40,359 bases of DNA from Candidatus Heimdallarchaeota archaeon (GTDB taxonomy: Archaea; Asgardarchaeota; Heimdallarchaeia; Heimdallarchaeales; Heimdallarchaeaceae), in the NCBI GenBank assembly GCA_016840095.1, contig JAEOSZ010000028.1, forward strand, positions 1 through 40,359. Direction: 5' to 3'. A program made the translations under genes and the position numbers. Positions 26,769-35,088 of the stretch are shown in pieces (the first letter of the stretch is position 1; every line of letters begins with the position of its first letter). A model generated the notes under the pieces. That model was not told the origin of the DNA, did no database searches, and saw nothing but the letters and a program-made list of their open reading frames with translations.

Positions 26769-26966
26769 TTAAGCTTTAACCAATTCTGTAGCTTGTGAAC
26801 CTCTATCAGTTTCTTCAATCTCGAATTCTACTTCGTCTCCTTCTTTTAGAGCATTAAAGTCTTCTTTACATCCAGTTCTGTGGAAGAATATGTCTTTTTC
26901 TTCTCCTTCGACATTGACGAACCCATAATTTCGGTCATACATTATTCTCTTAATAACACCTTTCAA
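26769..26966 (-). CDS. csp: cold-shock domain protein 1 (65 aa, TTG start)
   Basis: RNP1 RNYGFV, RNP2 IFFH, LKEGDEVEFEI; GGAGG SD at 26974-26978. Confidence 0.93.
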   Translation of the reverse strand: MKGVIKRIMYDRNYGFVNVEGEEKDIFFHRTGCKEDFNALKEGDEVEFEIEETDRGSQATELVKA

Positions 26967-27130
26967 TTGGATTCCTCCATTTTTTTGTTCATATTGGAAC
27001 ATTTACTGTTTCAATCTCAATTAAAAACAAGCACTTAGAAAATTATTACTCTTTTAAAGAACTAAAACAATCCAAATACAATATTTTTAACTTGCATAGA
27101 TAAAATGGAGTGGGGATTTATAAATAATAT
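26967..27130 (-). promoter_or_regulatory. csp1 promoter and long structured 5' leader
   Basis: TTTATAAA at 27117-27124; shared box at 27058-27072; hairpin at 27007-27029. Confidence 0.55.
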
Positions 27131-27153
27131 GTTTGACCCTTAAACATGAATCG

Positions 27154-27537
27154 TTATTCTCCTTGTAAAAGAATATAGTAGATATTGTAAATCATTCTCT
27201 GTAGCTTCCCATCTTCTTGTGTCTTCTTGTAAATCGATTTAAGGTCAACTTTGTTTCCTGATTTCTCAGTCAAATTAAATTCATCTTCAGTTCGAGAGTA
27301 ATGGAAATCGAATTCACCTTCAAAAAACTTCTTCAGAAAACTTACTTTTCCTTCTTCTAAAATATCTTCAAATTCCCAATAAGAAATCCCAAAACCTGCT
27401 TCAGGGGGGAGTATTCCTTGTTTAATTGAGTTAAGTACAATCTCTTCTTCTTTGCAATGTGGACACTTAACTAGTTTAAAGAGATCTTTGTAGTCTTCAT
27501 CAAAATCCTTTTTACAGTTTTTACAAGTGAACTTCAT
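27154..27537 (-). CDS. N-terminal zinc-ribbon hypothetical protein
   Basis: MKFTCKNC...KCPHC; start moved to ATG 27537. Confidence 0.7.
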   Translation of the reverse strand: MKFTCKNCKKDFDEDYKDLFKLVKCPHCKEEEIVLNSIKQGILPPEAGFGISYWEFEDILEEGKVSFLKKFFEGEFDFHYSRTEDEFNLTEKSGNKVDLKSIYKKTQEDGKLQRMIYNIYYILLQGE

Positions 27538-27630
27538 CCTATTACAGTAAGAATATTGACTTATAAGAGTATGCAAAAAAAATTATATCCTCATTTTTCT
27601 CTCTAAAAAGGTTCAAGAACACTATAGTGG

Positions 27631-28490: not shown

Positions 28491-28688
28491 TTATACTGTT
28501 TTTAGATTAACTGCTTGTGATCCTCTATCAGTATCTTCAACTTCAAATTCTACTGTATCTCCTTCTCTTAATTGATGGAAATCATCAGTAACTCCAGAAC
28601 GATGGAAAAAGATATCTTTCTCTTCTCCTTCAGCTTGGATAAATCCAAAATTTCTATCATACATGATTCTTTTGATAGTACCTTTCAT
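28491..28688 (-). CDS. csp: cold-shock domain protein 2
   Basis: RNFGFI, IFFH, LREGDTVEFEV, GSQAVN. Confidence 0.95.
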   Translation of the reverse strand: MKGTIKRIMYDRNFGFIQAEGEEKDIFFHRSGVTDDFHQLREGDTVEFEVEDTDRGSQAVNLKTV

Positions 28689-28866
28689 TTGTTTTTACTC
28701 CATTACTTTTCACTTTATGGAAGTGACATCCAATAGAAACAGAAACAACTTAATTAGATGTCAATTAATTTCTTAGAATTAAAATAATCTTAACTAGTCT
28801 TAACTAAATCTACTGAGTAAATGCTTGTTGTAGGGTTCATAAACTCTTTGGTTAACACAAAGTTTT
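28689..28866 (-). promoter_or_regulatory. csp2 promoter and structured 5' leader
   Basis: Collinear blocks shared with the csp3 upstream region; 11-bp stem 28724-28734/28753-28763. Confidence 0.7.
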
Positions 28867-34715: not shown

Positions 34716-34913
34716 TTAAATAACCTTTAGATTTACTGCTTGGGATCCTCTGTCAGTTTGTTCTACTTCAAATTCTACTGAGTCTCCTTCTCTGAGTTGA
34801 TGAAAATCTTCTGTAACACCAGAGCGATGGAAAAATACATCTTCTTCTTCTCCTTCAGCTTGGATAAAACCAAAATTTCTATCGTACATAACTTTTTTTA
34901 CTGTGCCTTTCAT
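34716..34913 (-). CDS. csp: cold-shock domain protein 3 (65 aa)
   Basis: MKGTVKKVMYDRNFGFI...VFFH; AGGAGG SD; the longer ORF-track start lies in the leader. Confidence 0.95.
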   Translation of the reverse strand: MKGTVKKVMYDRNFGFIQAEGEEEDVFFHRSGVTEDFHQLREGDSVEFEVEQTDRGSQAVNLKVI

Positions 34914-35088
34914 TGAGCTTTTCCTCCTTTTATTGTTCACATTAGGGAGTGACATCCAATAAATTAAAACCATTAATTAGATGCCGCTAAATCTTGAGAA
35001 GAATTAAAACAACCTTAACTAACACGTTTGAATCTACTAACTCTACATTTAAATCGAGGTTGATAAACTCTTTGGTTAGGCAAGTTTT
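34914..35088 (-). promoter_or_regulatory. csp3 promoter and structured 5' leader
   Basis: ATAAACTCTTTGGTTA identical to csp2; stem 34951-34960/34976-34985. Confidence 0.7.

Follow-up and report, generated by a model that had tools for sequence, protein, structure and literature searches.

A common folded 5′ leader upstream of cold-shock genes in Heimdall archaea, with a proposed role in post-transcriptional control

Structured leaders on cold-shock protein (csp) genes are of a kind well known in bacteria. To our knowledge, only a handful of cis-regulatory mRNA elements have been reported from archaea, and literature searches found none from Asgard archaea and no published description of an Asgard csp leader. 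The leaders considered here lie upstream of three csp genes (csp1, csp2, and csp3) in Candidatus Heimdallarchaeota archaeon, on contig JAEOSZ010000028.1 of assembly GCA_016840095.1; the whole 40,359-nucleotide (nt) stretch was analysed and is referred to below as the window. Among the closest described systems, the ~130-nt 5′ untranslated regions (5′UTRs) of Staphylococcus aureus cspB and cspC form an imperfect hairpin (nt ~3–76) that leaves the ribosome binding site (RBS) open, and a competing fold pairs nt ~25–54 with the RBS region; CspA may act there via a UUUGUUU sequence in the hairpin loop, and the element is not conserved outside Staphylococcus (Catalan-Moreno et al., 2021; PMC8034633). 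S. aureus CspA also melts the U-rich arm of its own 5′UTR hairpin and so represses itself, a process that runs via RNase III cleavage (Caballero et al., 2018; PMC5815144). The structured 5′UTR of Escherichia coli cspA, ~160 nt long, is described as controlling both mRNA stability and translation (Giuliodori et al., 2010, as cited in PMC5378194 and PMC6386945). In an archaeon, Methanolobus psychrophilus, leaders of 20–150 nt on cold-responsive mRNAs have been proposed to serve cold adaptation (PMC5378194).

The Heimdall csp genes stand behind a common folded leader, predicted at ~127 nt, that probably tunes Csp output post-transcriptionally. As far as sequence comparison can tell, this is a new csp leader family, not homologous to those above; the element itself is well supported, and its function is proposed. 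A preliminary description of the window had suggested a conserved, structured, csp-specific 5′ leader from csp2 and csp3, and this proposal holds up more broadly: the same architecture is found before all paralogue groups of two genera, with diverged sequence and with strand-specific pairing rich in G.U pairs. The csp upstream regions fall into six paralogue groups, represented by csp2 and csp3 in A, by csp1 in B, and by a fourth paralogue in F, with C–E comprising the others. About 55 csp genes of genera g1 and g2, which belong to one family, have common ordered upstream motifs in a single architecture, and a looser version occurs in genus g4. The products of csp1, csp2, and csp3 are all cold-shock domain proteins (PF00313, 60.9–67.5 bits against a cut-off of 27, E values 1e-16 to 1e-19); the fourth csp gene of the same genome is on a separate contig. 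The genes, their promoters, and the csp2 leader are located as follows.

26769–26966, minus strand: csp1 coding sequence, with a probable TTG start placed at 26966 by orthologue alignment and Shine-Dalgarno (SD) spacing
28491–28688, minus strand: csp2 coding sequence, 65 amino acids (aa), cold-shock domain
34716–34913, minus strand: csp3 coding sequence, 65 aa, cold-shock domain
28689–28815, minus strand: predicted csp2 5′ leader, ~127 nt, with its putative start at ~28815, 28–29 nt past the first T of the TATA box, where conservation also begins
28836–28853 (−165 to −148), minus strand: csp2 B recognition element (BRE) plus TATA box, AACCAAAGAGTTTATGAA; 17 of 18 bases as in csp3, the next 20 nt 35% identical
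35060–35077, minus strand: csp3 BRE/TATA box
27116–27131, minus strand: csp1 BRE/TATA box, of the TTTATAAA type

Six sequence blocks had been reported as common to the upstream regions of csp2 (28689–28866) and csp3 (34914–35088), and all were found, in identical order. They are part of a common upstream layout in which a conserved BRE/TATA box near −155 is followed by a variable spacer of ~27 nt and then by a leader of ~127 nt counted from the predicted transcription start. A TTTAT element is present at −153 to −161 in groups A–E, and the BRE/TATA box is conserved at 0.78–0.94 identity at a near-fixed distance from P1, the outermost helix of the leader. From the first T of the TATA box to the first base of P1 there are 28–32 nt in groups B–E and about 23–30 nt in group A. 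In archaea the TATA box has its centre ~26 nt ahead of the transcription start, and since the spacing fits this promoter geometry, the csp mRNA is predicted to begin with P1, which gives the leader its inferred length of ~127 nt. For comparison, differential RNA sequencing in Methanolobus psychrophilus led to predicted BRE/TATA boxes ~19–22 nt from start sites (PMC5378194). The TATA-like box of the preliminary description is thus present, with its distance of ~148 nt from the start codon and the leader length of ~120 nt revised: the box starts at −155 in csp2 and −154 in csp3, and the leader is the longer one given above.

Sequence identities were compared by segment, both between the two window genes and across genomes. 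Between csp2 and csp3, identity is 0.94 in the BRE/TATA box (17 of 18 bases), 0.64 in the leader, and 0.65 at third codon positions, while it is just 0.35 in the 20 nt between the TATA box and the predicted start, 0.40 upstream of the BRE, and 0.40 in the 3′ flank. Because flanking non-coding identity is only 0.35–0.40, neutral DNA must already have been randomised since the two genes were duplicated. Among 11 orthologues and paralogues of group A, mean pairwise identity is 0.83 in the leader, compared with 0.88 at codon positions 1 and 2, 0.70 at third positions, 0.52 in the 3′ flank, 0.46 in the spacer between TATA box and start, and 0.34 far upstream. Segments rank in the same way in groups B, D, and E; group C was left out of this comparison, as a wrong TATA site had been picked by the script. 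Recent duplication of csp2 and csp3, which the preliminary description had named as a possible sole cause of the similarity, does not account for the conserved leader, given its conservation across genomes and the randomised flanks.

Folding of each group with RNAalifold gave one layout, independently, in groups A–E. A first part, here called Domain I, is followed by a hairpin (P4), an A-rich linker, and a GGAGG SD sequence. Domain I is predicted to be a long, imperfect, 5′-terminal hairpin of 75–85 nt, which extends to about −45 from the predicted start of transcription, and is made up of P1, P1b, P2, and an apical P3. The outer helix P1 has 9–14 pairs, nearly all of them A-U and G.U, formed by AGUUAAAAA with UUUUUAAUU in groups B–E and by AGUAGAUUUAAAC with GUUUUAGAUUUAUU in group A. 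The sequence of P1b, a short helix, differs from group to group, P2 pairs UUAGA with UCUGA, and P3 is a small apical hairpin, UCUU...AAGA. A tract of five U residues (U5) forms the 3′ strand of P1 and is invariant in groups B–E, and UUGUUUU or UUUUGUUU is found in the 5′ arm of Domain I, between P2 and P3. The most diverged member of group A is csp2, with P1 reduced to its outer 7 bp and the most degraded Domain I. Its position in the three window leaders is as follows.

28809–28815, minus strand: csp2 P1, 5′ strand CAGUAGA, pairing with UCUAUUG
28731–28737, minus strand: csp2 P1, 3′ strand UCUAUUG
34956–35040, minus strand: csp3 Domain I, found as the minimum free energy (MFE) and centroid fold of csp3 and as the RNAalifold consensus of group A
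35026–35040 with 34956–34971, minus strand: csp3 P1, UUAGUAGAUUCAAAC with GGUUUUAAUUUAUUGG
35015–35022 with 34973–34981, minus strand: csp3 P2, UUAGUUAA with UCUAAUUAA
34992–35002, minus strand: csp3 apical P3, UCUU-CUC-AAGA
27019–27092, minus strand: csp1 Domain I, z = −3.0, the best covariance-model match in its own genome
within the csp1 Domain I, minus strand: P1, AGUUAAAAAUA with UGUUUUUAAUU; P2, GUAUUUGGA with UCUAAGUGC; apical P3 at 27049–27061

Single leaders were folded and compared with dinucleotide shuffles, giving z = −2.1 to −4.6 in groups B–E and −1.0 to −1.8 in group A; the folding of group F leaders was not separable from that of their shuffles. Pairing was then counted in two alignments. 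In a plain MAFFT alignment of groups B–E (A3), with the structure decided by vote over single-sequence folds, 77% of cells are paired, compared with 38–54% for slid partners, which also bring the covariation score down from 0.237 to no more than 0.145; both sides have changed in 11 of the 31 pairs of Domain I. In a model-fitted alignment that includes group A (A5, 38 distinct rows), 78% of cells are paired against 37–52% slid, and the covariation score of 0.288 (at most 0.125 slid) was reached by none of 500 shuffles, the tested structure in these counts being derived from the same sequences. Energies obtained for csp2 with the projected consensus imposed as a hard constraint are meaningless and were not used. 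On the csp strand 83.5% of Domain I cells are paired, compared with 66.6% on the complement, and G.U pairs make up 17.9% of cells. Since neither a DNA palindrome nor a transcript of the opposite strand would tolerate these G.U pairs, Domain I appears to act as an RNA of the csp strand. The modelled pairing thus indicates that the Domain I fold is conserved, and on that strand.

An alternative hairpin is predicted in the csp2/csp3 group, at the following positions.

28753–28763, minus strand: csp2 hairpin, 5′ strand UGACAUCUAAU, which doubles as the 3′ strand of P2 in Domain I
28724–28734, minus strand: csp2 hairpin, 3′ strand AUUGGAUGUCA
34951–34985, minus strand: csp3 alternative hairpin, GGCAUCUAAU (34976–34985) with AUUGGAUGUC (34951–34960), predicted at ~1–2 kcal/mol from the Domain I fold

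These are the mRNA hairpins of the preliminary description, and both can form as described there, with 11 bp in csp2 and 10 bp in csp3, including the change of an A-U to a G.U pair. As the conserved fold of the leader, the role first given to it, this local hairpin has to be qualified. It is confined to group A, where 88% of cells are paired in 12 distinct leaders, three of which have mismatches. Every change in it affects one strand only, with an A replaced by G or a C by U facing U or G. It is the 5′-terminal Domain I that forms the principal conserved fold, and the P2 of this domain has 92% of cells paired in group A. The two structures are mutually exclusive, because CAUCUGAUUAA is both the 5′ strand of the hairpin and the 3′ strand of P2, and its substitutions are of kinds tolerated by both pairing partners. 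They are predicted to be no more than a few kcal/mol apart, and the MFE fold varies among orthologues. The GGAUGUC of the hairpin 3′ strand is conserved though dispensable for Domain I, which would fit a two-state element without proving it. With the alternative hairpin in competition with Domain I, group A may be bistable, and in an in-silico temperature scan it behaved in a mixed fashion and was the only group that looked so.

Between Domain I and the gene are P4 and the SD region, and in some groups a further small hairpin (P5).

28710–28726, minus strand: csp2 P4 hairpin, UCACUU-CCAUA-AAGUGA, with CUUCCA (28718–28723) complementary to the SD
34935–34953, minus strand: csp3 P4 hairpin, with a CUCCCU anti-SD stretch at 34944–34949
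26993–27015, minus strand: csp1 P4 hairpin, AUUG-A-AACA ... UGUU-C-CAAU
28698–28702 (−14 to −10), minus strand: csp2 SD, UGGAG
34923–34928, minus strand: csp3 SD, AGGAGG
26968–26979, minus strand: csp1 SD, within the mini-hairpin P5, UGGA-GGAA-UCCA

The P4 window (−52 to −17) has mean z values of −2.8 to −3.8 in groups B–E, and the stems there are of unrelated sequence, to the point that four group-D orthologues have four different ones. Groups A and F (28710–28726 in csp2; 1690–1820 of L004) have in common a short P4 with z about −1, in which UCAC and GUGA enclose a pyrimidine-rich, CUCCU-like loop. These are the two most distant types, and the short form may be ancestral, replaced by longer, unrelated stems in groups B–E. 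Both the UCAC...GUGA hairpin and the SD-complementary CUUCC/CUCC stretch of the preliminary description are present, with nearly equal predicted energies: in groups A and F, pairing of the latter with GGAGG is 0–0.3 kcal/mol from the MFE fold, as read from near-optimal folds. A comparable anti-SD stretch is found on the 3′ strand of P4 in group B and in some members of group D, and groups C and E are without one. In group A, nt 46–66 are also able to pair with the RBS and AUG region. In groups B–D the SD sits in P5, a mini-hairpin of 4–5 bp with the sequence UGGA-GGAA-UCCA or, in group D, AGGA...UCCU. Start codons are TTG or GTG behind a strong GGAGG in groups B, D, and E (for example 26964–26966 of the window and loci L013–L016, L030–L033, L023, and L035–L038), and ATG in groups A, C, and F. 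This may amount to a built-in difference in translation efficiency between csp paralogues.

The leader is exclusively associated with csp genes. A protein search found these genes in 25 of 31 family genomes, usually in 2–4 copies, and a covariance model of the leader (R1) gave 29 matches in the 31 genomes, 27 of them adjoining a csp start codon and two interrupted by contig ends. At loose thresholds R1 also gave antisense and spurious matches, and alignment A4 was set aside. With profiles lacking the SD and start codon, the leader's own genome (89% complete) was matched only at the three window leaders, with nothing else at E < 0.1. A structure-rich model (R2) recovered the leader in nine of 151 genomes sampled over the phylum, all from genera g1 and g2 (family f1). 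A metagenome scan with Csp2 found three close relatives, one of them a duplicate, and a further protein search with inspection of contigs added two group-A leaders, both in L289. The leader was not found at two stray csp genes of another family, nor at 77 more distant metagenome csp loci (41–60% identity). The pattern ATTAAAA N45-65 TTTCTGA N5-9 TTTTTAATT, run over the genome collection, was too loose, with at least 120 chance matches in AT-rich genomes; its sole Asgard match, L126, is not a leader. Within the class, csp genes are present in 23 of 30 family genomes, compared with two of 52 others, and this near-confinement to one family suggests a single gain followed by paralogue expansion. 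The comparison with Rfam envisaged in the preliminary description matched no family: the window had no match to Rfam 15 (including RF01766) at gathering thresholds, and the four csp loci had no cis-regulatory match even at E ≤ 10.

The leader is proposed to set Csp output after transcription, through translation initiation, mRNA stability, or both, because its length, 5′ hairpin, weak helices, and U-rich motifs resemble those of the S. aureus leaders. Csp proteins would bind and melt its U-rich, weakly paired arms, in a feedback common to all paralogues, and/or the leader would refold with temperature. Csp feedback seems somewhat more likely than pure temperature sensing. In the csp2/csp3 group, CAUCUGAUUAA could pair either upstream, in Domain I, or downstream with AUUGGAUG, in the alternative hairpin, and P4 could compete with CUUCC:GGAGG pairing at the RBS. 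With competing pairings at both sites, a genuine two-state switch is most plausible in this group. That there is such a switch in Asgard archaea, sensing the free Csp pool and/or temperature, coordinating up to four paralogues by way of one common 5′-terminal hairpin, convergent with the bacterial thermoswitches, and constituting the first Asgard cis-regulatory leader family, is a tentative idea and on balance doubtful.

Several observations weigh against a regulatory leader of this kind, and some against the strength of the structural case. Shuffles fold almost as well as the csp2 and csp3 leaders (z about −1.4), and in csp2 Domain I is degraded. In alignment A3, two of five covariation measures are not above shuffles, namely both-side changes (330 of 500) and further pair types (499 of 500). 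Changes within groups are almost all one-sided, from A-U to G.U, and the both-side changes, being mostly between paralogue groups, represent few independent events. Outside groups A, B, and F and part of D, P4 has no clear anti-SD stretch. A duplex scan for complementarity between leader and RBS found sites that differ by group and do not go beyond shuffles (z = +1.6 to −2.2). In an in-silico scan from 0 to 55 °C, Domain I of groups B–E stays folded and no consistent trend in SD accessibility was seen. Finally, going by accession prefixes, we take the related metagenome contigs to come perhaps from marine or subseafloor sediment, where the temperature is stable, and such an origin would argue against a shock sensor.

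Other explanations of the conserved region can be considered against the same data. It could be a DNA-level operator or extended promoter in which a transcription factor binds nested inverted repeats, transcription starts near the gene, and TTTTTAATT (in group A, ATTTATTGG) at about −50 serves as the TATA box. The region is indeed AT-rich, with the inverted repeats AATTAAAAA...TTTTTAATT and TGACATC...GATGTCA, and its T5-A2-T2 block, invariant in groups B–E, is TATA-like. This is nevertheless quite unlikely, as pairing is strand-specific (83.5 against 66.6%) and the 17.9% of cells with G.U pairs would be mismatches in a DNA palindrome; substitutions within groups are also overwhelmingly of a G.U-compatible kind. 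There is moreover a separate BRE/TATA box at −155, conserved at 0.78–0.94 and held 28–32 nt from P1, with a spacer between them that is free to vary, and P4 keeps its hairpin with unrelated sequences, unlike a sequence-specific DNA site.

An RNA-level alternative is that Domain I is a transcription attenuator or a source of small RNA, its hairpin and U5 tract stopping some polymerases early and Csp modulating read-through. Archaeal transcription termination uses U-tracts, as is textbook knowledge, and in groups B–E an invariant U5 tract comes after a long hairpin, matched by an upstream A5 tract. The U-tract is degenerate in group A (GGUUUUAGAUUU), however, and absent from csp2, which have kept the rest of the leader, while the conserved downstream P4, the anti-SD stretch, and P5 point to control at the RBS; attenuation is accordingly rated as improbable. 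The notion that csp2/csp3 similarity is a functionless residue of recent tandem duplication draws on this pair alone, where the leader is no better conserved (0.64) than third codon positions (0.65). It is very hard to sustain in view of the 0.35–0.40 identity of the pair's flanking non-coding DNA and of leaders that exceed third codon positions across species and paralogue groups with their fold preserved, and the orthologous leaders are not assembly duplicates of one sequence. A folded leader acting on the csp mRNA remains the preferred account.

Some further features of the csp loci were noted. Tandem arrays of csp paralogues are frequent, with 2–3 copies within 1–7 kb, as in csp1–csp3, each with its own promoter and leader (other examples are G030:C143, G029:C180, G004:C31, and L284–L289). 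A csp gene of genus g2 (L028/L073, G002:C327:19–234) has an in-frame TAA after codon 17, yet carries a full leader (62 bits with model R1); recent pseudogenisation or faulty assembly may explain the stop. An upstream open reading frame (ORF) within the leader was considered and rejected: the AUG within GGAUGUCAC has no SD, and the frame that it opens is 4, 8, or more codons long or, in L005 with its GUG, does not exist. In csp3 alone a leader AUG is in frame with the gene (34914–34973, minus strand), giving an 85-aa ORF; because orthologues have stops in that stretch, the annotated long form of csp3 is probably spurious. At 27280–27361 (minus strand), inside the ORF at 27154–27576, the Rfam model snoR09 for a C/D-box small nucleolar RNA gave a match below threshold, with 30 bits against a gathering score of 50 (E = 0.49), which is probably due to chance.

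Asgard archaea include the closest known prokaryotic relatives of eukaryotes, and their gene regulation is of interest on account of that kinship. The leaders described here offer a concrete, alignable RNA family of ~55 members with a defined fold and coordinates, which can be synthesised and probed without culture. Should they turn out to respond to Csp or temperature, the logic by which long hairpins control csp genes in bacteria would have been reinvented on an archaeal promoter and RBS, and there would be a handle on RNA-chaperone regulation in these sediment archaea. If they do not, they would still form a well-supported structured 5′-terminal element in need of an explanation, for example mRNA stabilisation.

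Compared with known systems, the Heimdall leader has something in common with each. Like those of Methanolobus psychrophilus, it is an archaeal leader with a predicted BRE/TATA promoter; the leaders there, however, precede genes other than csp and have not been described as a conserved RNA family of defined fold. Like E. coli cspA (RF01766), it is a long structured csp 5′UTR, but with a different fold, in a different domain of life, without a match to the Rfam model, and with no cold-box or upstream-box sequences recognised. With S. aureus cspA it shares a csp 5′UTR hairpin with a U-rich arm, here the U5 tract that forms the 3′ strand of P1, although the sequences are unrelated and the S. aureus mechanism depends on RNase III cleavage. 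Its differences from S. aureus cspB/cspC are the lack of any sequence relationship, an archaeal host with a predicted BRE/TATA promoter, the extra P4 between hairpin and SD, and the fact that a locked fold between hairpin interior and RBS is not consistently predicted. There are nevertheless more points of likeness to this pair than to the others. The lengths are similar (~130 nt and a predicted ~127 nt), and in both cases the element is common to csp paralogues. Both have a long hairpin close to the 5′ end, with the RBS left open (nt ~3–76 there, ~1–78 here, as predicted in groups A–E), and a U/G-rich motif, UUUGUUU in the loop there and UUGUUUU/UUUUGUUU in the 5′ arm here. A competing fold and an anti-RBS stretch like those of S. 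aureus are predicted here in some groups. On these comparisons, the likeness to the S. aureus csp thermoswitch is best taken as one of analogy rather than homology.

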